A stretch of 64,000 nucleotides of DNA from IMG/VR virus record IMGVR_UViG_3300025871_000007; one strand, 5' to 3'. The notes under the pieces are model-generated. The model was not told the origin of the DNA. It saw only the letters and a list, made by a program, of their open reading frames with translations, and did no database searches. Shown piece by piece: positions 20,849-58,325 of the stretch. Both the position numbers and the translations under genes were made by a program. Source of the DNA: an uncultured virus (IMG/VR IMGVR_UViG_3300025871_000007). Lineage: Duplodnaviria; Heunggongvirae; Uroviricota; Caudoviricetes. Each line of letters begins with the position of its first letter. Within the stretch, counting starts at the first letter, position 1.

Positions 20849-21511
20849 TTATGAGGGTATAATTAGCTGTTTAGAGGTATCACCTGAATCTATCCATTGT
20901 ATTATTCTAGGTATTTTAGATCTAATTTCAAAGAAATTACACCAATCTTGTAATCTAAGTAATCTTCTCTTCACATCATTTATACTTTCTTGCGTAGGAG
21001 GAGTCATTCTGCATAAAGCACCTTTAGTGCCGTCTAGCTTTATCATTTTCCAATATCTACCACGTAATCTATTAGTAAGATGTGAAGGTTTAGTTATATC
21101 TTTAGGAAGCATAAATCTAATTAATTCAAAATCACATGAGAAACTATGAAAATTATGAATTGTACATCTTCCATTAGTTTTATCTAATTGTTCGCATCTA
21201 TCTGAATATTTAACAGTTCTTTTAACAGCTTTAAGGGTATATGTTTTATTATTAAAATCTACTGGTTTATCTATTACTTCAATACTGGGAGGTGTTTGTT
21301 CTGAAGGTAGATAATCTATAGAAACAAATCTACAACATGCTCCGCAGTTTTCTGGGCAAGTAAAACCGCGCAAAAGACCAGGAGAAACAGTAAGCGTAAT
21401 AGGATGATATTCTTGTCCCTGATATACAAATGGAACTTCAGTTACAGAACTGAAAAATTGAGTTATTATTCTAGGTATTGAGTCATTTTCTTTTGAATAA
21501 TTTGAATTCAT
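20849..21511 (-). CDS. YkgJ/CxxCxxCC-like Zn/Fe-chelating protein
   Basis: CPENCGACCRF, CEQLDKTNGRCTIH...SC. Confidence 0.6.
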   Translation of the reverse strand: MNSNYSKENDSIPRIITQFFSSVTEVPFVYQGQEYHPITLTVSPGLLRGFTCPENCGACCRFVSIDYLPSEQTPPSIEVIDKPVDFNNKTYTLKAVKRTVKYSDRCEQLDKTNGRCTIHNFHSFSCDFELIRFMLPKDITKPSHLTNRLRGRYWKMIKLDGTKGALCRMTPPTQESINDVKRRLLRLQDWCNFFEIRSKIPRIIQWIDSGDTSKQLIIPS

Positions 21512-38158: not shown

Positions 38159-41100
38159 ATGTATCATAATAGTTTATGTGAAAAATGTGGATTATGGAAG
38201 GATGCTAAGCATCCTTGTGTTACAGGAAGAGGCGATCCATCAGCAAAATTACTTATTTTAGGAGAAGCCTTAGGAGAACAAGAGGACTTACAAGGATTAC
38301 CTTTTGTAGGTTCTTCTGGACAAAGACTACAAGCATATCTCGATAGATTAAATATCAAATATTATATAAGTAATGCTGTAAAATGTAGACCTACTTCTAA
38401 AAGTTTAAATAGAAAAGGTGAAACTATTCTTCATAATAGAACACCTACTGCTAAAGAAATAAAATTATGTTCAGCAAAAACATATCAGTTAATAGATAAA
38501 ATAAAACCTACTGTAATATTAACTCTAGGATCTATACCTGTAACTCAATTATTACATTTGGGTCTAAGTATGACATCTGTTCGTGGAAGAACGTATTATC
38601 ATCCACAATTAGAATGTCATATTGTACCTACTTGGCATCCTGCTTATTTAGGATACAGTGGAGATAAACTTGTAGAAAAGCAATTTATGCAAGATCTTCA
38701 TCAGGCTATAGAATTATTAAAAGCACCCAGAGTAAGACAAATTAACTCTAATCCGAGATCACTTCAGGATCCTGTAGAAATTAAGGAATATCTGGAGTAT
38801 TTAAATACTATTGAAGAATGTGCCATTGACTTAGAAACAACAGGGTTAAATCCTAGAAAAGATAGGATAACAGATATCTCTTTATGTGCAAAATGCGGTG
38901 AAGGTGTACATATAAGATGGATAGATATACTTCCATATTTTGAGTGCTTAAAAAAACTTCTAGAAAAACCAGAATTAAAATGTGTATTTCAAAACGGCAA
39001 GTTTGATACTGCTTTTCTAAAAGCTATTGGTATTAATGTAGCAAATTTTTATTTTGATACCCAATTGGCTTATCATACAACTACAATGACTTTTGAAGGT
39101 GAAGGAAAATCTCTTTATAGTTTGGAGGTTATGTCTTGGCTTTTAACAAGAGAAGGAAATTACAAAGCAATTCTAGAAGAATTTGGTGGAATAGCAGGTC
39201 ATCAAAATGGAATATTGCAGAAGAAAGCAGAGAAGAAAGAAAAGGAGATAAAGAAGGAACAAGAGAAGAAGGAAGAAAAGAAAAAAGAACAGAAGTCAGA
39301 GAAAACTAAACAAGTAATCAGAGTTCCAGTAGTAGAATGTAATTCTTTATTTGATGATATGGCAGAACCAGTAGTTAAAACTAATATCGCAAATGAATAT
39401 TTTTCTCATTTATCTACTGAAGAAGATGGTAAATTTCTTGAAAAGTTTACACCAGCAAAGAAATTAAGAAGAACATTATTAGAAGAAGATCCAAATATTT
39501 TTATAATAAATGAAGAACAAGAAAAAGAATTACAGACTTATGTAACCTTTGTTTCAGACAAGCTTAAAAAGAAATTAGAATCTACAAAACTAACAGCTTT
39601 AGAGTATTATTCAGCAATGGATGCGGATGTTACCTTTCAAATTTATAAGAGATTGAAACCACAGATAGATTCAGAATTTAAAGAGGTATTTTATGATTTA
39701 ATTATGCCTCTTTCTTCTACACTACAACGATTAGAACAGAACGGTATTCTTCTAGATACTCCTTACATAGATATGCTTTTAGACGAGAATCGTGCTAGAA
39801 CAGCAGAAATAAAAAATTCTTTTTTTAAGAAAGTAAAGAAAGAATTTAATATGGATTCACCAAAAGAATTAAGAGAAGTTATTTATGATCATTTAAGAAT
39901 TCCAGTAGAAGAAGAATATATGACTAATGGTGGAAAAAGTGGAGTAAAAATGCCTTCCACCGATAAAAATGCTATAGAGTATTTAGCTAAAAAACATCCT
40001 ATTTTAAATGGAATTGTAGAATACAGAAAACTCGAGAAAGAAAATTCTACATACTTGGATGGATTTAAAAATCATGTAGATCCTGTTACTGGAAGAATTC
40101 ATACATCTTTTTTGCAGCATGCTACCGCAACTGGCAGATTATCTTGTATAGCTGAAGGTACCAAGATTGCTATAGTAGGAGAAGAAAAAAATATAGAAGA
40201 TGTCCAACCAGGAGATTTTGTTTATAATTATGATAATGATGGAAATTTAACTATTTCTAAAGTATTAAATAAATCATATAGCGGATACGGTGATTGTGTA
40301 AGAGTTAAATGGCAAAGTTCAGGAAATGGAAAAATAGGTGAATTAATTTGTACACCTGAACATAGAATACTACATAAGTATAATGGCTGGACAGAAGCTA
40401 AAGATTTAAAACATTATGATAAGGTATATCACCTAAGAAAAGGAAAAACTTACTCTTATGATCCTCGTCCACGACTATATGGTACAAATTCTTTTTGTGA
40501 AGACGAACAAAGATTTATAAAAAGAGTATATTTTAAGGCAGATCCTAAAAAGACACATATTCATCATATAGATCACAATCCTTCTAATAACAGAATTTCT
40601 AATTTGGAAATTTTAGATAGTGCTGAACATAATAGATATCATTCTAGATTGCTATACGAAAAAGGAATAGTTAGTGAAAGGCACATGCATACATCAGAAG
40701 CGCATGCAAAACGATTACAATCTTTAAAATATGGTAAAGATAATCCAACATATATTTATAAAACTAAAGAAGAACTTATTCAAATGTTAAAGGATGCCAA
40801 AGGTATAGTTACGCATATTCCAATGGATTTTTTAACATATAAACAAAAATGTGAAACAGAAGGTATCAATCTTAAAGAACTTTGTGACTGTTTCTCAAGA
40901 GGTAAGTTTTTTATTTCTCAAGAAGATGTTTTTAAAGTATGGGATAAATATAAAGATTATGAATATCCTATATATAGATGTGCAGGTGAATTGCATATAA
41001 GTCAAGATAAGTTTAAAAGATTATTAAAGTATTATGATATATCAACTAATCATGTAATTCTATCAGTTAAACCTGCAGGTAAATATCATGTTTGGGATTT

Positions 41101-41935
41101 AGAGATAGAAAATTATCCAAATTTTATTGCTAATGAAATCTGTGTTCATAATTCTAGTGCACCTAATACACAAAATATACCTAGAGATAACCGTATTCGT
41201 AATATGATTATTCCTAGAGAGGGATGCAAACTTGTAACTGCTGACTTATCACAAGCAGAATTAAGAATTCTAGCTATGATGGCAGACGATAAGAAAATGA
41301 TAGATGCTTTTGCATCTGGATATGACTTCCATGCTTATACTGCATGTGCAATGTTTGGTATAAAACCAGAGATATTTGATAAAGAAAATAATCCAGATCA
41401 TAAAGCAAAACGATCTCTAGCAAAAAATATTAATTTCGGTATTGCGTATCAAATGTCAGCAAATTCATTAGCTTCAGATGTGAATATTTCATTAAAAGAA
41501 GCACAAGATTTTATTGACAAATTTTACAATACTTATTTTAATGTAAAAAGATGGATAGATAAAACAAAATCTTTTGCTTTAAAGAATGGATATGTACAAA
41601 CATTGCACGGAAGACGTAGATATTTGCCGTATGTACACAGTTCAGATCAAAAAGTTCGTGAAGGTGCATTAAGGCAAGCCGTAAATACACCAATTCAAGG
41701 CACTGCTAGTGATTGTGCTTGTTTTGGTCTTATTAGAATTCAAAAGTTTATAGACGAGAAACAGTTAAAAACAAAACCTATCATGATTATACATGATGAA
41801 ATTGTTCTAGAAACGCCTTTTGAAGAAGTAGAGTTAATGGTAGAAAAATTACCATATTTTATGACACAAAATTTACCAAAAGTAACAATTCCATTAGTAG
41901 CAGACGCAGAAGTTTTAACGAGATGGAAGAAATAG
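38159..41935 (+). CDS. polA: Family A DNA polymerase with N-terminal family-4 uracil-DNA glycosylase domain and an intein
   Basis: UDG motifs GEALGEQED, PFVG, NAVKCRP, WHPAY; exonuclease IDLETTG; polymerase motifs TGRLS, DLSQAELR, AKNINFGIAY, IHDE. Confidence 0.92.
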   Translation: MYHNSLCEKCGLWKDAKHPCVTGRGDPSAKLLILGEALGEQEDLQGLPFVGSSGQRLQAYLDRLNIKYYISNAVKCRPTSKSLNRKGETILHNRTPTAKEIKLCSAKTYQLIDKIKPTVILTLGSIPVTQLLHLGLSMTSVRGRTYYHPQLECHIVPTWHPAYLGYSGDKLVEKQFMQDLHQAIELLKAPRVRQINSNPRSLQDPVEIKEYLEYLNTIEECAIDLETTGLNPRKDRITDISLCAKCGEGVHIRWIDILPYFECLKKLLEKPELKCVFQNGKFDTAFLKAIGINVANFYFDTQLAYHTTTMTFEGEGKSLYSLEVMSWLLTREGNYKAILEEFGGIAGHQNGILQKKAEKKEKEIKKEQEKKEEKKKEQKSEKTKQVIRVPVVECNSLFDDMAEPVVKTNIANEYFSHLSTEEDGKFLEKFTPAKKLRRTLLEEDPNIFIINEEQEKELQTYVTFVSDKLKKKLESTKLTALEYYSAMDADVTFQIYKRLKPQIDSEFKEVFYDLIMPLSSTLQRLEQNGILLDTPYIDMLLDENRARTAEIKNSFFKKVKKEFNMDSPKELREVIYDHLRIPVEEEYMTNGGKSGVKMPSTDKNAIEYLAKKHPILNGIVEYRKLEKENSTYLDGFKNHVDPVTGRIHTSFLQHATATGRLSCIAEGTKIAIVGEEKNIEDVQPGDFVYNYDNDGNLTISKVLNKSYSGYGDCVRVKWQSSGNGKIGELICTPEHRILHKYNGWTEAKDLKHYDKVYHLRKGKTYSYDPRPRLYGTNSFCEDEQRFIKRVYFKADPKKTHIHHIDHNPSNNRISNLEILDSAEHNRYHSRLLYEKGIVSERHMHTSEAHAKRLQSLKYGKDNPTYIYKTKEELIQMLKDAKGIVTHIPMDFLTYKQKCETEGINLKELCDCFSRGKFFISQEDVFKVWDKYKDYEYPIYRCAGELHISQDKFKRLLKYYDISTNHVILSVKPAGKYHVWDLEIENYPNFIANEICVHNSSAPNTQNIPRDNRIRNMIIPREGCKLVTADLSQAELRILAMMADDKKMIDAFASGYDFHAYTACAMFGIKPEIFDKENNPDHKAKRSLAKNINFGIAYQMSANSLASDVNISLKEAQDFIDKFYNTYFNVKRWIDKTKSFALKNGYVQTLHGRRRYLPYVHSSDQKVREGALRQAVNTPIQGTASDCACFGLIRIQKFIDEKQLKTKPIMIIHDEIVLETPFEEVELMVEKLPYFMTQNLPKVTIPLVADAEVLTRWKK
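40145..41152 (+). mobile_element. Intein with HNH endonuclease in DNA polymerase (336 aa)
   Basis: TGRLS|CIAEGT...CTPEH...HHIDHNPSNN...VWDLEIENYPNFIANEICVHN|SSAPN. Confidence 0.92.
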
Positions 41936-43113: not shown

Positions 43114-43581
43114 ATGAAAATACAAAAAAAATTTACTACTGAAACAGCCCATATAGTAAGAGAAGCTTCATCGATTCGTTGCAAGAATAATATACATGGT
43201 CATAGCTATACTTGGATAGTAACAATACAAGGTGGTCTAGATCATGCAGGAATGATTATAGATTTTAAAGATTTAAAACCTATTAAGGATTTTATAGATC
43301 TTTTTGATCACGCAACTGTTTTTTGGTCTAAGGAACCGGATTGTGAAATTCTAGCTTTTTTTCAAGATAAATTTTCAAGAGTTCTTATCATGAAACAAAA
43401 TCCTACAGCAGAAAATATGGCAAGATCACTTTTCAAATTTACTAAAGATTGGTTACAAAAAGATTATCCTACACTTTCTGTTGCAGAGGTAGCGGTATGG
43501 GAAACCGCTACAGGATGTGGTATTGCTACCGAATGCAATGGGAATGATATTTTAGTTTACACTCATTCAGATACTAACTAA
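43114..43581 (+). CDS. queD: 6-carboxytetrahydropterin synthase
   Basis: TAH, IHGHSY, IDFKDLK, NPTAENMA, WET. Confidence 0.9.
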   Translation: MKIQKKFTTETAHIVREASSIRCKNNIHGHSYTWIVTIQGGLDHAGMIIDFKDLKPIKDFIDLFDHATVFWSKEPDCEILAFFQDKFSRVLIMKQNPTAENMARSLFKFTKDWLQKDYPTLSVAEVAVWETATGCGIATECNGNDILVYTHSDTN

Positions 43582-43596
43582 GTGTGGTGATTTTTA

Positions 43597-44028
43597 ATGT
43601 CTTTTAAAAAGGCTAATTTTGTTAATTGGGATGATATTGCTGCCTATTGTAGAGAATTAAGAGTACAAGAAACACCAGATGTAATTTTAGCAGTCCATCG
43701 TGGTGGTCTTCCTATAGGAGTTCTTCTAAGTCATAAATTTCATGTTCCAGTAGAAATACTATATTTTTCTAGATATGATAGTAATACAAAGATTAAATGT
43801 AATCTTTCTAGAAAAGAAGAATATAATAGAATATTAGTAGTAGACGATGTATCTGATAAAGGAGAATCCTTAGAAAGAATTACAGAATTTTTATCAAAGA
43901 AGTATTATATTAAAGAATTAACTACACTTACATATGCAATAAAAAATAAAACACAATTTAAACCAAATTATTTCAAAAAAGAATATGACGATCATATTTG
44001 GTTAATCTTTCCTTGGGAGGCAATATGA
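43597..44028 (+). CDS. Purine phosphoribosyltransferase (Gpt/Hpt-like)
   Basis: RGGL, PRPP loop LVVDDVSDKGESL, C-terminal WLIFPWE. Confidence 0.85.
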   Translation: MSFKKANFVNWDDIAAYCRELRVQETPDVILAVHRGGLPIGVLLSHKFHVPVEILYFSRYDSNTKIKCNLSRKEEYNRILVVDDVSDKGESLERITEFLSKKYYIKELTTLTYAIKNKTQFKPNYFKKEYDDHIWLIFPWEAI

Positions 44029-44711
44029 CAGAAAAAGAATGGAATTTAGATATTACAGAAAGCTTCACGTCCATACAGGGAGAAGGAATTCATGAAGGGG
44101 TTCCTTCCCATTTTATTCGACTTGCAAAATGTAATGCTTCATGTCCTTTCTGTGATTCTAAATATAGCTGGAAATCTGGAGATAAATATGATTATCAAGG
44201 TATTTCAGCACATTTAAGTATGATGTATATTGCAAATCCAAAAGTTAATATGCTAACTATAACAGGTGGTGAGCCAACTTTACAAGATTTAAACCCACTA
44301 ACATCTTTAGTTAAAGATTTTTATAATTGGTTTATAGAAGTAGAAACAAATGGTTTGATTCATAAAGATAGAGAATTGGAAAAAGACGTAGATTTATGGA
44401 TTGTTTCACCAAAACTATACTCAGAAGATATAATAAAAAGATATAATCAAGAAATTTTAGATAGATTTTTATATACGAATCATATCTTTAAATTTGTTAT
44501 AGGAACAGAAGAAGAACTAAGTATTGTTTTAGATTTTATAAAATCATATAAATTGGATCTAGATAATAATATTTGGTTAATGCCTAAAGGTACTTCAATA
44601 GAAGAAATTAGAAAATCAAGCAAACTACTTGTCCCTGTTTGCCTAAGAAAAGGATGGAATTTATCTTCCAGACAACAGATAGTTATTTGGGGCAATAAAA
44701 AAGGAGTATAA
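44025..44711 (+). CDS. queE: 7-carboxy-7-deazaguanine synthase (radical SAM)
   Basis: SIQGEG, CNASCPFCDS, TGGEP, ETNG, VSPK; ATG at 44025 after GGAGG. Confidence 0.9.
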   Translation: MTEKEWNLDITESFTSIQGEGIHEGVPSHFIRLAKCNASCPFCDSKYSWKSGDKYDYQGISAHLSMMYIANPKVNMLTITGGEPTLQDLNPLTSLVKDFYNWFIEVETNGLIHKDRELEKDVDLWIVSPKLYSEDIIKRYNQEILDRFLYTNHIFKFVIGTEEELSIVLDFIKSYKLDLDNNIWLMPKGTSIEEIRKSSKLLVPVCLRKGWNLSSRQQIVIWGNKKGV

Positions 44712-44715
44712 TGTT

Positions 44716-44946
44716 ATGAATTATTATTGTAAAAATGGTGCATATCATACCTATAAGTGCTGCAATACATGCTGGAATTTACATCCAAAAGCAGAGAAAA
44801 ATAAAATGTTTTTCGGTAGTGAGACCTTTAATAAAGTATTAGATCAAAATTTTATTCAAAAAGCAAAACAAGTAGGATTTACTGAGCAACAAATAGAATT
44901 CTTATCACAGATTATTTCTACAAGATTAAGTGTAGTTATGGAGTAA
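44716..44946 (+). CDS. Small Cys-rich hypothetical protein
   Basis: 76 aa, AAGGAG RBS. Confidence 0.5.
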   Translation: MNYYCKNGAYHTYKCCNTCWNLHPKAEKNKMFFGSETFNKVLDQNFIQKAKQVGFTEQQIEFLSQIISTRLSVVME

Positions 44947-44951
44947 GAAGG

Positions 44952-45407
44952 ATGAAAATAATTACAACTTCTGATGGTAAGTGTAAAATACTTTCTTTTC
45001 TTTCTGAAAAGAATATAGCAGCATTTACACTCGATTCTGGTGATTGTCATAATGCAGAACCTATTAAATTAACGTTAAACACATATATCTCCGATTTAGA
45101 TATTATTGCAAGATGTGAGGGTCTTGATAAAGATTTAAGAATTTTTACTGTTTGTTCTTCTTGCCGTAAAACTTATAATGATTGTAGCTGTGATCATCTT
45201 CATTCTATTGCTTCTAATTATCAATTATGTGTTAGAGATCTAGAAGGAAAATTACTAGGTTATATACAAAGAATAGAAATTTTTGGTAGTGCAGATCAAG
45301 ATAAACCTATTGTTAAAATATATAAATATGAAATAGATAATAGTAATACAGAAGATATAGTAGTTAAAAGAGATGAAAATGGACAACCTAAACTTTTTAT
45401 ATATTAG
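44952..45407 (+). CDS. Hypothetical Cys-rich protein
   Basis: CSSC...CSCDH. Confidence 0.5.
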   Translation: MKIITTSDGKCKILSFLSEKNIAAFTLDSGDCHNAEPIKLTLNTYISDLDIIARCEGLDKDLRIFTVCSSCRKTYNDCSCDHLHSIASNYQLCVRDLEGKLLGYIQRIEIFGSADQDKPIVKIYKYEIDNSNTEDIVVKRDENGQPKLFIY

Positions 45408-45480: not shown

Positions 45481-46143
45481 ATGGGTAGAGATACAAATTG
45501 CGTAGTACTTCTTTCTGGTGGTTTAGATTCAACAGTTATGCTGTATTGGGTGAAAGAGAGATATGATAAGGTATTTCCTCTTTATATTAACTATGGATCA
45601 AGTCATAAAGAAAAAGAATTTTATGCCGCACAACAAACATGTAAGGAATTAGGATTATTTCTAGAAGAAGTAAAGTTAACTGGCAATATACTTTCAGATT
45701 CTTCTCTAGTAGACAAATCTATTAGAACTCCAGATGATTTAAAAGATACAATTAATACAGTTGTTCCATTTAGAAATATTATGATGATTAGTATCGCAGC
45801 TAGTTATGCAGATAAAGTAAATGCCGGTGTAATTGCAACTAGTCCAACACGAGAAGATTTCGATGTTTTCAGAGATTGTAGAAGAGAATTTCATGATGCA
45901 TTAGAAAAAACTTTACAGATTGCTGCAAAGTACGATCAACCCTATCAAATTTTAACACCTTTTATTACTAATACTAAAGAAGATGTTATTCGTATTGGTG
46001 TTGATATGGATGTAGATTTTTCAAAAACCTGGTCTTGTTATAATCCACAAAGAGACGAACCCTGTGGTGTATGTCCAGCATGTAGGGTTAGAGAAAAAGG
46101 ATTTATGCTAGCTGGTGTAAAAGATCCACTTAGGAGAAATTAA
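45481..46143 (+). CDS. queC: 7-cyano-7-deazaguanine (preQ0) synthase
   Basis: LSGGLDS, VPFRN, DCR, TWSCY, CGVCPACRVR. Confidence 0.92.
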   Translation: MGRDTNCVVLLSGGLDSTVMLYWVKERYDKVFPLYINYGSSHKEKEFYAAQQTCKELGLFLEEVKLTGNILSDSSLVDKSIRTPDDLKDTINTVVPFRNIMMISIAASYADKVNAGVIATSPTREDFDVFRDCRREFHDALEKTLQIAAKYDQPYQILTPFITNTKEDVIRIGVDMDVDFSKTWSCYNPQRDEPCGVCPACRVREKGFMLAGVKDPLRRN

Positions 46144-46751
46144 TGCTTAGTTCATTAGATACGTTTTATTACACAGATGAAAATATAGATTATATAGGTG
46201 ATCAACTTCATAGTCTATTCAATTTTAAAACTGCTAATATGATAGGAGATTCTGTTTTTGCTTTTGAAGGAAAAATGGATGTAAAAACTGATCATATGGT
46301 AGATATTGAAGATGTAAAAGAAAATGATTATATCTGGTCGCCTAAAGCTCTTAACTTTATTATAGAGATCTTTAACATCAATATAGAAACTGCAGTACTA
46401 TATCAAAGAGCTTTTATGCAGATTTGTACAAATGTTCTTAAAGATATATTAGCAGAATCAAATATTATAGTTTATTTAGTTAAACTGAAAGGTGATGATA
46501 TTCTAGTTAAAACATTGGATGGAGAAGTTTGGAAGAAGCTTTCTGTATCTATTGCTACAGTAAGTCATATTTCTGGTTTAATCCACGTAGGTATTAATAT
46601 AGATACAGATATGAATATACCTGTTCCAGCAATAGGATTACAAGAACTTATCGATTTGCATGTATACGAATTTGGTGTTCGTGTACTAGAACAATTTAAA
46701 GACTTTCATAAATCTATAAAATTTGCTTCAGTTAAAATAAAAGGTGTTTAA
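46143..46751 (+). CDS. DUF366-like protein
   Basis: YIGDQL, DSVFAFEG, MVDIED, FIIE, YQR, GDDI, KLSVSIA, IHVGINI pattern recognised as DUF366-like. Confidence 0.7.
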   Translation: MLSSLDTFYYTDENIDYIGDQLHSLFNFKTANMIGDSVFAFEGKMDVKTDHMVDIEDVKENDYIWSPKALNFIIEIFNINIETAVLYQRAFMQICTNVLKDILAESNIIVYLVKLKGDDILVKTLDGEVWKKLSVSIATVSHISGLIHVGINIDTDMNIPVPAIGLQELIDLHVYEFGVRVLEQFKDFHKSIKFASVKIKGV

Positions 46752-46754
46752 TAT

Positions 46755-47399
46755 ATGGAAGAACAACTAATTAAATTACTCCAAAAAGAATCGTTTAAGA
46801 AAATGGAAGAAGGAGCAAGACTTCTTCTTGAGGGTTTAGGTGAAGTAACAGCACCAGAATCTACCAGTCCCTTAACAACATATTCGACAATTTCTTTGGA
46901 TGATCCTAATTTTAAGAAAACACCTTATAGGATAGCAAAAGCTTGGGTAGAAATGTGTATAGGTCTTTCGCAAAAACACGAAGTAACAAAAATATTAGAA
47001 ACCAATTTTCCAAGTAATTATACAGGAATGATAATTATTGATTCAATTAATTGTTATTCAATGTGTCCACATCATGCACTTCCTGTAGCTTATCGTGTAG
47101 ATTTTGGATATATACCTTCTGATAAAATGTTGGGTCTTTCGAAGATTCCTAGATTTATAAAACTCTTAGCTAAACAACCCATACTTCAAGAGGATTTTAC
47201 TAAACAATGTATTGAACAATTTGTCGAACATGTTAAACCTGAAGGTGCTATTTGTGTGGTAAAAGGTGTACATAATTGCATGGTTTGCAGAGGCGTTGGT
47301 GCTATTAATTCAAGTGCTACTACGTCAGAAGTCTACGGAAGTTTTGAAAAACTAGAAACTAGAACAGAATTTTTAAATTTAGTTAAAAAGAATACATAA
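46755..47399 (+). CDS. folE: GTP cyclohydrolase I
   Basis: TPYRIAK, SMCPHHALP, GLSKIPR, LQE, HNCMVCRG. Confidence 0.92.
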   Translation: MEEQLIKLLQKESFKKMEEGARLLLEGLGEVTAPESTSPLTTYSTISLDDPNFKKTPYRIAKAWVEMCIGLSQKHEVTKILETNFPSNYTGMIIIDSINCYSMCPHHALPVAYRVDFGYIPSDKMLGLSKIPRFIKLLAKQPILQEDFTKQCIEQFVEHVKPEGAICVVKGVHNCMVCRGVGAINSSATTSEVYGSFEKLETRTEFLNLVKKNT

Positions 47400-47965
47400 T
47401 GGTATATACTAAACAACAAAATATAGAGATATCTAAAAAAAGATATCAGTATGTTCAACAAATCATTAAACTGCTTCCTTCTAAAACTTATTTACATGAA
47501 TGTTCTTTTGAAGAAGACAAGTTTGGTGGATCTGATTTTATAATCATTCAAAAAGCAATTAATGTCAGTTATGCATGTAGATTATTAAATGATAAACCGC
47601 ATTGGGATCGTATAACTTTTCGTGTGCATACTTATGATCATACTGATGTACCTAATCAAAAATATAGTGAATACTATAAAATTCAAAGAGATGAAGTAAC
47701 TTGGGATAGGTATTTCTTTGGTCATATAAATACTAGTAATATAATAACAAAGTGGTTAATTTTTGATAGAAGAAAAGCTATAGATAGTGGCATTTTTAAT
47801 ATGCCAGTTCAGCTTAATAACTTCAACTATCCCAGAAATCTAAAATGGAATGATTCAAAAAAAGAAGATGATAGAACAGGATTTATTTCTTGTAGGATGT
47901 CTGATTTTTTTAAAGTTGGTGCAGTATTACATAGTTACGATAAGAAAGGTACTTTAGATGTTTAA
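47399..47965 (+). CDS. Hypothetical protein, possibly PD-(D/E)XK-like fold
   Basis: EEDKFGGSDF segment; weak. Confidence 0.35.
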   Translation: MVYTKQQNIEISKKRYQYVQQIIKLLPSKTYLHECSFEEDKFGGSDFIIIQKAINVSYACRLLNDKPHWDRITFRVHTYDHTDVPNQKYSEYYKIQRDEVTWDRYFFGHINTSNIITKWLIFDRRKAIDSGIFNMPVQLNNFNYPRNLKWNDSKKEDDRTGFISCRMSDFFKVGAVLHSYDKKGTLDV

Positions 47966-48194
47966 TAATTTTTTTAGAAAGAAAGAAAAAGTAATAATGG
48001 ATACTATACGAGATGATGATACAGTACATTTTCTAACCACACAAAGAATTATTGAAATATTAAATGATCCCAAACTGGCATCAGAAGATGAGATTAGAAA
48101 TTTAGCTTATACTGTTTTAGAAACTTTAGATATTTTAAGTAATGCAATTATGCAAAGTATCACTGATAAAGGTGATCCTTCAAATTTACATTAA
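47958..48194 (+). CDS. Hypothetical protein
   Basis: 78 aa overlapping ORF. Confidence 0.5.
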   Translation: MFNNFFRKKEKVIMDTIRDDDTVHFLTTQRIIEILNDPKLASEDEIRNLAYTVLETLDILSNAIMQSITDKGDPSNLH

Positions 48195-48204
48195 GGAAGT
48201 ATGT

Positions 48205-49380
48205 ATGAGTAATATAATAGAATTTATATCTAAATGTTTTGCTTTTAAAAAACTCAGAAAAGCAAATTATAAATGTGAATTTACTGGTGTAGAACTTTCA
48301 GGAAGTACTGGATTTGCAGTATATTCTATTTATAATATTGCAGAAATAGAAGAGTATGTAAAATCATATGAAAATAAAGATGAGATTATTTACTGGGTTT
48401 TCGATAGAATGTGGGAAGATTGGCTTTTGATAATTTCAAAAGATGTTCACTTCGAGCAAGAAGAAAAGGTTAGACAATCAATTAAATCGTTAGATGACTA
48501 TGCAAAAAAGATTATAGATAAAGTTATAGATAATCTAAAAACTCCTCTAGGTTCTAGAACAGCATATATTAATGAGTACGATCCTACTCTGCTTCTTCCA
48601 GTTAAAAGACAACCTACACGTGAAGCAATTGGATATGAGTATATTCCTTTTGTAGGTCTAGATGTATGGAATGGTTATGAATTATCTTATCTGGATAGAA
48701 ATGGAAAACCTGTAAATAAAATGATTCGTATTGCTTATGATTCAGATAGTGAATCTATTATAGAATCTAAATCGTTAAAACTTTATTTTAATTCTTTTAA
48801 TAACACTATAGTAGAAAAATTAGGTAAAGGTAATATAATAGATATTATTAAGCAAGATTTAAAACAAGCAATTAAATGTAATTCTATAGAAGCATACTTT
48901 ATAGAAACAAATTATATTCATGATTTTGCTAAGTATTACTATCCTATAGATCAATTACGTTGTGATAAGTATTCATATGATTATGACCCAGATTTGCTTG
49001 AAATTCAACCTTCATTATATAATTATCCTATTTTTCTAAAGACAGATTTACTTAAATCTAACTGTAGACACAGTGGTTTACCAGATTGGGGAACTGCTTA
49101 TATTTCTTATGAACCAAATTCTGCGCAATTGGATCCTTATTCTGTTTTAAAATATATAATTTCTTTCAGAAATCACAGAGAATTTCATGAAGAGTGTTGT
49201 GAAAGAATTATGCACGATATCATGTTTAAAATTAACCCAAAATGGTTACGTGTAGAACTTCGGTACACACGTAGGGGCGGTTTAGATATCAACCCAATTC
49301 GTGTATTTGATTCAATAGGTGAGTATAATTATGATTTTCATGTTGAATTTTCTAGATATGCAAGGGAGATAAGGCAATAG
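48205..49380 (+). CDS. queF: Bimodular preQ0 reductase (QueF) with extra N-terminal domain
   Basis: YDPTLL, DVWNGYELS, QueF motif IESKSLKLYFNSFN, KSNC...PDWG, FHEECCERI, YTRRGGLDINP. Confidence 0.88.
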   Translation: MSNIIEFISKCFAFKKLRKANYKCEFTGVELSGSTGFAVYSIYNIAEIEEYVKSYENKDEIIYWVFDRMWEDWLLIISKDVHFEQEEKVRQSIKSLDDYAKKIIDKVIDNLKTPLGSRTAYINEYDPTLLLPVKRQPTREAIGYEYIPFVGLDVWNGYELSYLDRNGKPVNKMIRIAYDSDSESIIESKSLKLYFNSFNNTIVEKLGKGNIIDIIKQDLKQAIKCNSIEAYFIETNYIHDFAKYYYPIDQLRCDKYSYDYDPDLLEIQPSLYNYPIFLKTDLLKSNCRHSGLPDWGTAYISYEPNSAQLDPYSVLKYIISFRNHREFHEECCERIMHDIMFKINPKWLRVELRYTRRGGLDINPIRVFDSIGEYNYDFHVEFSRYAREIRQ

Positions 49381-50403
49381 ATGGAGAGATTAGTTCTTTC
49401 TGCTTTCATACGCTATTATCATATCTGCAAATACTTAGGAGCCAAGAACTTACTTGGCTCCAAGCATTATCCAGAGCAGATAGTAAAAGCTTTGGATTAT
49501 GTTCAAGGCACAGATGCTATTAATCCTATAACAGGAGAAAGAGATAAAGGTATAGATGGCGTAAATCTTATTATAGATTCTGGAGCTTTTTCTGTTTGGA
49601 ATGCAGGTGGTAAATTAGATGTAATGGAATATATTGAATTTTTACGAAAATTTGAAAAAGAACACAGATCTAAATTTAATGAAGTATGGTATGTTAATTT
49701 AGACGTTATTCCAGGAAAACAAGGTGAATCACCTACTATGCAGCAAATTAATGATGCAATAGAGGAAGGATTTAAGAATTATGATATCATGCGAAATGAA
49801 TTTGATAATGTAATTCATGTATTCCACCAAGGTGATTCAGAAGAAGCATTATTACGATTATTAGATACAAAACCTGCTTATATTGGTATATCTCCTTCTA
49901 ATGATGTTATGACACCTCAGAGAACCATTTGGTTGGACGAAACTTTTAAGAAAGTACCGAAGGAAGTTAGAACTCATGGATTTGCTGTAACATCTTTTGA
50001 TTTAATGAAATCATTCGATTGGTTTAGTGTAGATTCAACTTCTTGGTTTATGATAGGAATGTATGGAAAGTTATCTATACCTTTTAATTCTAAAGGAAAG
50101 GTTGTGTTAGGTGACGACGATGTATATTCCAAAAAAGAAATTAGTGTTTCTGTAGAAAAAGCAAGTAAAGGTCCAGATGGATATAAATTTTTAATGCAAT
50201 CACATAAAAAAGGTAATAAAGCTTTTCTTGAACAAGTAAATCAATATATAGAATATCTGTGCAAGAGATATCCATTTATAACACCTTCAGATTTATTTGG
50301 TGAAAGAAATCAAGCAAGAGTATTTGCTAATTTAAATGTGTTTTTAGATTTCGAAAGACAAGGTAAAAGAACCTGTAATGTAGAAGTAAATTCATTGTTC
50401 TAA
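49381..50403 (+). CDS. dpdA: DNA 7-deazaguanine transglycosylase (TGT-like DpdA family)
   Basis: IDSGAFS, LDVIPG, VFHQG, HGFA, SVDSTSW; at the end of the preQ0/preQ1 biosynthesis cluster. Confidence 0.75.
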   Translation: MERLVLSAFIRYYHICKYLGAKNLLGSKHYPEQIVKALDYVQGTDAINPITGERDKGIDGVNLIIDSGAFSVWNAGGKLDVMEYIEFLRKFEKEHRSKFNEVWYVNLDVIPGKQGESPTMQQINDAIEEGFKNYDIMRNEFDNVIHVFHQGDSEEALLRLLDTKPAYIGISPSNDVMTPQRTIWLDETFKKVPKEVRTHGFAVTSFDLMKSFDWFSVDSTSWFMIGMYGKLSIPFNSKGKVVLGDDDVYSKKEISVSVEKASKGPDGYKFLMQSHKKGNKAFLEQVNQYIEYLCKRYPFITPSDLFGERNQARVFANLNVFLDFERQGKRTCNVEVNSLF

Positions 50404-56809: not shown

Positions 56810-57241
56810 ATGAAATTAAAAATAAATTTAGAAAAATTACCTCCTACATATGACTCACTTATTATAGACAGATTAGAAAAGAAAAATCTACCTTCTTGTA
56901 TGGGTGGAATGCTTCTTCCTATTTTAAATCAGATAGAAGAAATAGAAGACACAGATATTATAGCACCTACTGAAAGTATACCAGAAATCAATCGAGCGAA
57001 TGTAGATCTAACAGAAGTTTGTGCTAATTCTGACAAAGTCCTTACAGGAAATAGTATGACTGTTTCTGGTTTAAAACATATACTAGCATTTAAAGAATCT
57101 AAGGCAAATGCTTTTGTAGACCAATGTGAAAAATGCATTAATTGTACGTATATAGAAGTATGTAATAATCTAACACGCAATACACTACAATCATTTGCAA
57201 TAATGCAATCTTTATCAATTAAAGGAGTATCGAATGAATAA
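56810..57241 (+). CDS. Hypothetical Cys-containing protein
   Basis: CEKCINC...C; directly upstream of tubulin; ATG start chosen. Confidence 0.5.
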   Translation: MKLKINLEKLPPTYDSLIIDRLEKKNLPSCMGGMLLPILNQIEEIEDTDIIAPTESIPEINRANVDLTEVCANSDKVLTGNSMTVSGLKHILAFKESKANAFVDQCEKCINCTYIEVCNNLTRNTLQSFAIMQSLSIKGVSNE

Positions 57242-58325
57242 ATTCTTTAGATTTATAGGTTTGGGTCAATGCGGTCTACGAATATCTCAAGAATTTGAAA
57301 AAATGGGATTTTATACGTCTATTATTAATTCTGACGAAATAGATGAAAGAGGATATGAGATAGAATCCGATAGATTGCTTGTTTTAAAAGGAACAGGAAC
57401 AGGTAAATCTTTAAAGATAGGAAAACAAATTATAGAAAATAATAAAAGTAAATTTGAATCCTTTATCAGAAAGAATTGCAATAAGAATGGTGTTACAATC
57501 TTTATTGCAGGAGGTGGTGGAGGAACAGGTGGATCTTTTATTGCTCCTGCAGTAGAATATACAAAAAGTTTAGGGTATAAAGTAGGCGTAATTTATACTC
57601 TTCCACCTAAAATGCTAGGCATCGTAACAGCAAAAAATTCCTTGATTACTTTAAAAGAACTTTTAAAACTTGAAACAGATTTCTTTATGCTGGTAGATAA
57701 TGAATTATTAATAGAAGAAGTAGGAAAAGATGATACTTGGTGGGGTAAGATAAATAGAATGATATTATCTACTTTCTATTCATCTACTGAAATTATACGT
57801 GAAAATAAAACAGCTCAACAAGGTTTAGGTTCTATAGATAGAGGTGAGGTAATTAGAAGTTTAACTTATGGAAAAGGTTATACAGATATTAGAAGATACT
57901 ATCTAACCACAGAAGATTGTGGAAAAAGTGAAGAGGAGCTAAGTACTTTACTTTTTCATCCTCAACTTGTAGAAGGATATAATTATAAAGAATCCAAATG
58001 TTATTTGGTATCGATAGACGTACCACAATCTGGAAATTATAGCTTGATATCAAAGAAAATATTTGATATTATAAAGCATCGCGTAGGTAATGCTATATCA
58101 ATATTGGGTATGTTTACAGATCCACTTTTAAAAGATTCTGTTAAAGTAACAATTATAAATTCTGGATTACAATTACCTAAAATACTCCAATCTAGAATAA
58201 AGAATCTAAGAAGAGATGAAAATGCTTTTCAACATAAACAAGAAAAGGAGGATCAAACTATTCAAGTTATTTCAGAATTAACATTTGATGAAGATCTCTC
58301 ACTAGATAAAGACTTTCAACTATAA
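57234..58325 (+). CDS. Tubulin/FtsZ-family GTPase (PhuZ/TubZ-like)
   Basis: IGLGQCG, GGGGGTGG signature, VDNE, IDRGE. Confidence 0.85.
   Translation: MNKFFRFIGLGQCGLRISQEFEKMGFYTSIINSDEIDERGYEIESDRLLVLKGTGTGKSLKIGKQIIENNKSKFESFIRKNCNKNGVTIFIAGGGGGTGGSFIAPAVEYTKSLGYKVGVIYTLPPKMLGIVTAKNSLITLKELLKLETDFFMLVDNELLIEEVGKDDTWWGKINRMILSTFYSSTEIIRENKTAQQGLGSIDRGEVIRSLTYGKGYTDIRRYYLTTEDCGKSEEELSTLLFHPQLVEGYNYKESKCYLVSIDVPQSGNYSLISKKIFDIIKHRVGNAISILGMFTDPLLKDSVKVTIINSGLQLPKILQSRIKNLRRDENAFQHKQEKEDQTIQVISELTFDEDLSLDKDFQL

Follow-up and report, generated by a model that had tools for sequence, protein, structure and literature searches.

DUF366, a ligase-fold protein family, as a probable partner of the QueC step in preQ0 synthesis

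Our analysis suggests that DUF366 assists QueC, probably as an enzyme, in the conversion of CDG to preQ0 during deazaguanine synthesis. Judged from genomics, we put the probability of this reading at roughly 0.65. The DUF366 gene at issue lies in what we call the window, the whole stretch of 64,000 nucleotides analysed here, which comes from an uncultured virus (IMG/VR record IMGVR_UViG_3300025871_000007). A sequence-only reading of this DNA had seen in DUF366 either an enzyme that tailors preQ1 or, alternatively, a protein that assists the CDG-to-preQ0 step, and it is the second option that the data favour, through co-occurrence, gene fusions and the type of QueC involved. If this is right, many uncultured bacteria, methanogens and phages use a fifth component in a pathway that was supposed to be complete, while DUF366, whose structure was solved in 2007, acquires a function and the ligase fold a new reaction. 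To our knowledge the DUF366 family has no assigned function, and we know of no partner that canonical QueC needs. A search of the accessible literature found no paper linking DUF366 to QueC; there was no mention of DUF366 in the accessible text of PMC13329287 or its searched supplement, nor in the accessible supplement of PMC10516641, and a term search of the accessible part of bioRxiv 2026.04.15.718813 was likewise negative for such a link.

The DUF366 gene and the deazaguanine cluster of the phage

The stop codon of queC (TAA, 46141-46143) and the ATG of the DUF366 gene have one base in common (TAATG), and folE starts 3 nt 3' of the DUF366 gene, an arrangement that the sequence-only reading had described correctly (Table 1). 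Translational coupling of queC and DUF366 would be plausible. The overlap by itself carries little information, since overlaps are common in this block of + strand genes: with start codons of our choosing, 10 of 39 consecutive pairs overlap and 20 of 39 lie at most 5 nt apart, and folE and the 188-aa ORF share a one-base overlap identical to that of queC and DUF366.

Table 1. Features of the deazaguanine cluster, and of the unlinked dpdM homologue, in window coordinates
Feature	Position	Strand	Details
dpdM homologue (preQ1 methyltransferase)	20849..21511	-	25 kb from que cluster
queD	43114..43581	+	PF01242, phrog_2389
phosphoribosyltransferase-family protein	43597..44028	+	PF00156
queE radical SAM enzyme	44025..44711	+	phrog_2076 E 3e-45; alternative upstream TTG start 43998 possible
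two ORFs (76, 151 aa)	44716..45407	+	no known family; missing in syntenic relative L003
queC	45481..46143	+	220 aa; PF06508 187 bits; TIGR00364 150.6, cut-off 150.3
Shine-Dalgarno-like AGGAG	46132..46136	+	within queC 3' end, 6 nt upstream of DUF366 start; from sequence
DUF366 (PF04017) protein gene	46143..46751	+	202 aa, ATG start; biotin/lipoate-ligase fold (predicted); proposed QueC partner
folE, GTP cyclohydrolase I	46755..47399	+	PF01227 146.6 bits
two ORFs (188, 78 aa)	47399..48194	+	no known family; L003 match for 78-aa ORF only
bimodular queF with N-terminal extension	48142..49380	+	PF14819 + PF14489; ESKSLKLY, Cys/Asp, HEEC, YTRRGG motifs
dpdA, DNA transglycosylase closest to phiSM DpdA1	49381..50403	+	phrog_887

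The record nearest to the window, G001, is a phage genome of 236 kb, complete and with terminal repeats. The que cluster sits between polA/clamp and recA, and the order queC-DUF366-folE-queF-dpdA is repeated in the loci L003, L004/L005, L285, L290 and L291. As in phage dPreQ1/mdPreQ1 systems, the gene content is complete, with homologues of FolE, QueD, QueE, QueC, QueF, DpdA and DpdM, the last with eight metal-binding cysteines. The window's DpdA is 36% identical to phiSM CEPG_00053 over 219 aa (E 6e-36), and its DpdM homologue is 38% identical to phiSM CEPG_00054 over 137 aa (E 3e-29, all eight cysteines aligned) and also matches VH7D, phi-ST2 and phi-Grn1. Under the gene-content rules given in the accessible part of PMC10516641, the bases to be expected from this set of genes, DpdM homologue included, would be the known dPreQ1 and mdPreQ1, and the phage probably replaces some of its DNA guanines with a known modified base. 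DUF366 does not point to a new DNA base; those predicted for this phage are already described. The window nevertheless departs from the known systems in several respects: the phiSM, VH7D and Knocker records have no DUF366, the phiSM QueC carries YPDC where that of the window carries FRDC, dpdM is unlinked, and a phosphoribosyltransferase gene has been added. The latter occurs in 7 of 18 viral DUF366 loci and 0 of 79 cellular ones; as a guess, its product could recycle the guanine released by DpdA. Four other viral records, including the 76%-complete relative G006, yielded no DpdM, so that it may not be general in the window's phage group. A phrog_887 search of five viral records gave no match and is uninformative.

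Three further features of the phage were recorded. Its QueF has about 120 extra N-terminal residues without a Pfam match, and the QueF proteins of L003, L004, L285 and L290 are also long (382-415 aa). PolA (window 38159-41935) combines an N-terminal UDG-like domain with an HNH-containing intein, the PolA of L003 being 906 aa in length. In addition, a tubulin/FtsZ-family gene (PF00091) lies at 57234-58325.

Family, fold and distribution of DUF366

The Pfam family DUF366 (PF04017) matched the window's protein at 147.3 bits (cut-off 29.9) over profile positions 5-184 of 184, and its sole sequence match in the PDB was 2DDZ, from Pyrococcus horikoshii (E 4e-18). An AlphaFold2 model of the window's protein (pLDDT 94.7) superimposed on 2DDZ with Z 27.4 and an rmsd of 1.4 Å over 185 aligned residues (Foldseek TM 0.84). 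The next structural neighbours were LipB (Z 13.1, rmsd 3.4, 166 aligned), biotin ligases (Z 12.5-11.7) and LplA (Z 11.6), which are tied to within about one Z unit, and Foldseek concurred. As modelled, the protein has the class II aaRS/biotin-synthetase core fold of biotin and lipoate ligases. Both the family and the fold that the sequence-only reading had proposed were thus recovered. The window's protein is a full-length relative of the 2DDZ protein, with the same fold and the same invariant residues, and differs from it in being phage-borne. We take the 2DDZ protein to be the product of P. horikoshii locus PH0223. In the accessible part of PMC1414084, PH0223 is listed as self-interacting.

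Across 338 DUF366 homologues, D54, K132, H148 and N152 were invariant (338/338), and Y17, G19, D57, I64, E75, Q88, D119, S144, P160 and K198 were conserved at 97% or more. LipB-type acyltransferases use a catalytic Cys, and no conserved Cys was found in the columns of this alignment conserved at 85% or more. The Arg/Gly-rich ATP loop of BirA and LplA ligases, for which we used the motifs GRGR and RRxSGG from the ligase-set consensus, was found in 0 of the 338 sequences. A weak profile match (probability 22%) aligned GDD, K132 and GxN of DUF366 with PND, K and GxN of biotin ligases, and comparison with the LplA set gave no useful alignment. DUF366 has its core fold in common with the superfamily of BirA, LplA and LipB (Z 11-13), but is unlike them in having an acidic loop in place of the ATP loop and no C-terminal domain, as well as in its context of deazaguanine synthesis.

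The sequence-only reading had called the family mostly archaeal, a description that the sampled sequences do not bear out, with the archaea represented by 14 control genomes, of which two (M. jannaschii and M. acetivorans) had DUF366. Of 530 genome stretches that matched one DUF366 pattern, the best 80 were all bacterial by title, and the nearest Atlas cluster was 75% viral among members with a record. No DUF366 was found in plasmids, and among 50,697 records of cultured phages there was one match, apparently bacterial. The record titled Microcystis phage MaAM05 (L100; MW495066.1, 104408-128965) has secDF, glyS, fabI, fliM and pomA around DUF366 and, to judge from these genes, looks like a piece of bacterial chromosome. 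A fusion of a Clp N-terminal domain to DUF366 was seen in a single record (P0145).

Association of DUF366 with QueC and with QueC type

In most loci DUF366 is a neighbour of queC. Of the cellular loci, 80 were fetched and 79 scored, and in 76 the two genes are adjacent; of the viral ones, 19 were fetched and 18 scored, with adjacency in nine. The 80th cellular locus (L039), which the ORF caller had missed, also reads queC-DUF366-queE. An apparent DUF366-QueE fusion in L039 was rejected as a shadow frame. Of the 30 loci read in the phylum of G004, 29 also had the two genes side by side. Of 80 metagenome loci fetched, 58 extended 800 nt or more upstream; 49 of these contained queC and 56 some preQ0 gene. 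In genome samples from three bacterial phyla, which were centred on carriers and contain some incomplete genomes, QueC was present in 115 of 116 DUF366 carriers: 16 of 17 Bacillota (phylum of G002), 54 of 54 in the phylum of G004 and 45 of 45 in that of G005. In the exception, G141, the DUF366 gene lies at the end of a contig; this is also the sole genome without QueE among the 80 of these 116 carriers tested for it (79/80). Two natural QueC-DUF366 fusions were found (P0122 and G253), each in a single record; no longer fused forms emerged from 7975 candidates, in a weak search, P0122 itself having come from another one. A complex prediction for the window's QueC and DUF366, using a 50-row alignment of each (score 0.00, mark 0.32), counts neither for nor against a complex.

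The association extends to the kind of QueC. According to the accessible text of PMC13329287, canonical QueC is recognised by SGGxDS, VPxRN, Zn cysteines with Tyr, YxQxHxxE and YPDC. Cellular QueC linked to DUF366, here called DN-type, instead carries YGQ(K/R)(A/S)xxxE for YxQxHxxE and N.EEA..F(P/S)DN for YPDC, and where DUF366 is present QueC mostly lacks the His of the former motif and the Cys of the latter. The aromatic and Asp residues described as binding the base in Cap9 (accessible part of bioRxiv 2025.04.06.647259) are kept in DN-type QueC. In the phylum of G004, where 54 of 101 genomes carry DUF366, Pfam QueC scores were at most 193.7 bits in all 54 carriers and at least 200 in 40 of 42 QueC-positive non-carriers; of the two outliers, one is of DN type and sits at a contig end, and the other is fragmented. 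For the phylum of G005 the scores were at most 197.4 in all 45 carriers and at least 233.8 in all 47 QueC-positive non-carriers. Nine of the 45 carriers, probably a single lineage, have DUF366 and queC on separate contigs, and the DN motif was kept in all four that were checked. Divergent QueC was therefore present in 99 of 99 carriers of the two phyla, and canonical QueC in 87 of 89 QueC-positive non-carriers. Similarly, among 230 distinct QueC sequences, drawn from loci retrieved by DUF366 or QueC queries, DUF366 was present with 112 of 113 that have Asn at the column of the YPDC Cys, as opposed to 6 of 113 that have Cys there. In a QueC tree, one clade with 98% support holds 52 rows; in 51 of them DUF366 is next to queC or close to it, and the remaining one lies at the end of a contig. 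Because this DN clade mostly represents a single lineage, the genomes counted here do not stand for independent events. As 53 of the 54 carriers in the phylum of G004 have a single QueC and 49 have QueF, it appears that the preQ0 for Q synthesis must come from DN-type QueC.

The window's own QueC is, by its motifs, a milder variant of RDC type and not DN-type. It keeps SGGxDS, VPxRN, His42, Glu46, Cys133 and the four Zn cysteines with Tyr, with Ser for the Gln of YxQxHxxE and FRDC for YPDC; a Y131F variant of QueC is partly active, according to the accessible text of PMC13329287. It fell outside the DN clade in three trees, although a single clade was not rejected (AU p 0.37), so that two separate origins of the link between QueC and DUF366 are not demonstrated. 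Because it retains His and Cys and lies outside that clade, the logic of a degenerate QueC in need of a helper is not directly applicable to it. Among the 80 viral QueC loci nearest to the window's, DUF366 was near all eight of RDC type (six distinct sequences, first known through the DUF366 scan) and 0 of the 72 others, including 70 of 70 PDC-type loci without it. The phylum of G004 also provided six second copies of QueC with an EEANSGYRDC motif (L183-L188), an undescribed paralogue with neither que neighbours nor DUF366. These led us to reject a one-motif rule by which YRDC needs DUF366.

Competing explanations and a proposed reaction

The sequence-only reading had proposed that DUF366 acylates or aminoacylates the amine of preQ1 to give a new DNA base. 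The ligase fold fits such a role, as do the placing of QueF and DpdA in the same gene row in the window's phage group (5 of 18 viral loci, and also L285, L290 and L291) and the existence of N-formyl and N-methyl preQ1 (PMC10516641, accessible part). DUF366, however, occurs with and without QueF, so that preQ1 cannot be the general substrate of the family. In the sample of the G002 phylum (Desulfosporosinus; 151 genomes, with DUF366 in 17, QueC in 45 and QueF in 36), QueF was found in one of 17 DUF366 carriers, being absent also from the chromosome-level G002, while QueA was found in 17 of 17. Nor was QueF found in any of five other viral carriers (two with 90-100% completeness), in either DUF366-positive archaeal control or within any of 79 cellular DUF366 loci. 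Co-occurrence with deazaguanine genes, a check proposed in the sequence-only reading, was confirmed. With QueF missing from these carriers, no ATP loop and a DpdM homologue in the phage, we give preQ1 tailoring a very slim chance. DUF366 as a replacement for QueF was considered too, given that among QueC-positive Bacillota QueF was found in 1 of 16 carriers and 17 of 29 non-carriers (Fisher p 0.0005, without correction for kinship). That idea was dropped, since QueF is present in 49 of the 54 carriers of the G004 phylum and missing from 12 non-carriers. As a separate observation, 27 of the 45 QueC-positive genomes of the G002 phylum have QueA and no QueF match, with or without DUF366, and there may be a hole at the preQ0-to-preQ1 step in those Bacillota.

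Other explanations concern the substrates and products of QueC. On the QueE side, DUF366 might deal with CDG or with the ammonia that QueE releases: it could carry or channel such a compound, or control damage, between QueE and QueC without being specific to QueC. DUF366 does lie between queC and queE, adjacent to the latter, in 19 of 79 cellular loci, and remains with queE/folE where queC has moved, with QueE in nearly all carriers tested. Two Bacillota (G023 and G057) have a full-length DUF366 beside queE/folE and a sole, canonical QueC elsewhere. The loci L036 and L084 contain DUF366-queE and lack queC; it is missing too from L008-L011, where DUF366 comes after a DpdA3-like gene some 3 kb from queE. 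Five viral fragments were also searched for QueC; at 21-41% completeness, they cannot demonstrate its absence. The arrangements in G023, G057 and L008-L011 keep a CDG-side role alive, and G023, G057, L036, L084 and the YRDC second copies count against a partner of QueC. Against a CDG-side role, queE lies elsewhere in two phyla in which queC is adjacent or fused, QueE is adjacent in 0 of 18 viral loci, and the presence of DUF366 tracks QueC type; on balance we consider it unlikely. The fold's known job is amide transfer to lysines, and K132 is invariant and K198 nearly so, which would suit a transferase or acceptor that works with a QueC variant to attach CDG to a protein amine, after the manner of Cap9/QatC. 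In those systems the target of the QueC homologue is a defence protein, a precedent for an amine that is not ammonia capturing CDG-AMP, and the accessible parts of 10.1101/2025.04.06.647259 and PMC13329287 describe no ligase-fold partner there; DN-type QueC moreover has the His-less YxQ(x)5E form of Cap9 (PMC13329287, accessible text). Protein deazaguanylation nevertheless seems very unlikely, given that the DN-type enzyme is the only QueC in most carriers, that QueF is present in 49 of 54 carriers in one phylum and QueA in all 17 Bacillota carriers, and that the neighbours scanned included no conserved target gene. Finally, the missing ATP-binding motifs, and the many que pathways that do without DUF366 (such as all 70 PDC-type viral loci), could be taken to mean a non-catalytic or vestigial passenger of que operons, which is highly improbable for a protein whose polar residues are invariant in 338 of 338 sequences, which is retained when unlinked from queC (nine genomes), and which is found fused. 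In L008-L011, four large-phage loci, the gene directly upstream of DUF366 encodes a TGT-like protein (L008:6739-7983, L010:7237-7983) that is probably DpdA3, a label based on matches to Campylobacter and Flavobacterium phage proteins; a DpdA3-like protein is present in four of the five other viral DUF366 carriers.

Returning to DUF366 as a partner of QueC, we propose the following scheme for the window's phage. FolE, QueD, QueE and QueC, together with DUF366, would produce preQ0; QueF would convert it to preQ1, which DpdA1 would exchange into DNA; and DpdM would methylate part of the preQ1 in DNA, giving the known, restriction-blocking pair dPreQ1/mdPreQ1. ATP activation would be performed by QueC. 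The invariant polar residues and absent ATP loops suit an enzyme whose pocket is polar and acidic and which forms no adenylate itself. As QueC supplies adenylated intermediates, the simplest role for DUF366 would be to resolve one of these, or an amidine side product, to free preQ0. With the Lys/Asp/His/Asn pocket of the ligase fold and without its ATP loop, it may work in the manner of a transferase or lyase that needs no ATP, with an intermediate or product of QueC as substrate (CDG-AMP, the amide ADG, the ADG adenylate or the amidine); if DUF366 is a partner at all, the odds of such an activity are about even. More tentatively, and with some doubt, the two proteins might constitute a second kind of preQ0 synthase, in which DN-type QueC activates CDG and DUF366 turns the amide, adenylate or amidine into the nitrile preQ0. 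Were this true, much of several bacterial phyla, as well as methanogens and giant phages, would normally make the queuosine/archaeosine precursor by this route.

Such a two-protein synthase would also account for the failure of the phage 9g Gat-QueC to feed Q synthesis: with this protein, a queC mutant formed dG+ without recovering Q (PMC6884629, accessible part). Its QueC domain has His-less and N.EEA..YPDN motifs, as in the main DUF366-linked clade, and groups beside the DN clade on a long-branch join. It differs from the window's QueC, which is stand-alone and of RDC type, in its fused glutaminase and in making G+ rather than preQ0 usable for Q, and no GATase domain was matched in the 220 aa of the latter. 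Phage 9g has no DUF366, so Gat-QueC works without it, and one locus (L016) carries DUF366 and Gat-QueC together, which indicates that DUF366 is no simple substitute for the Gat domain.
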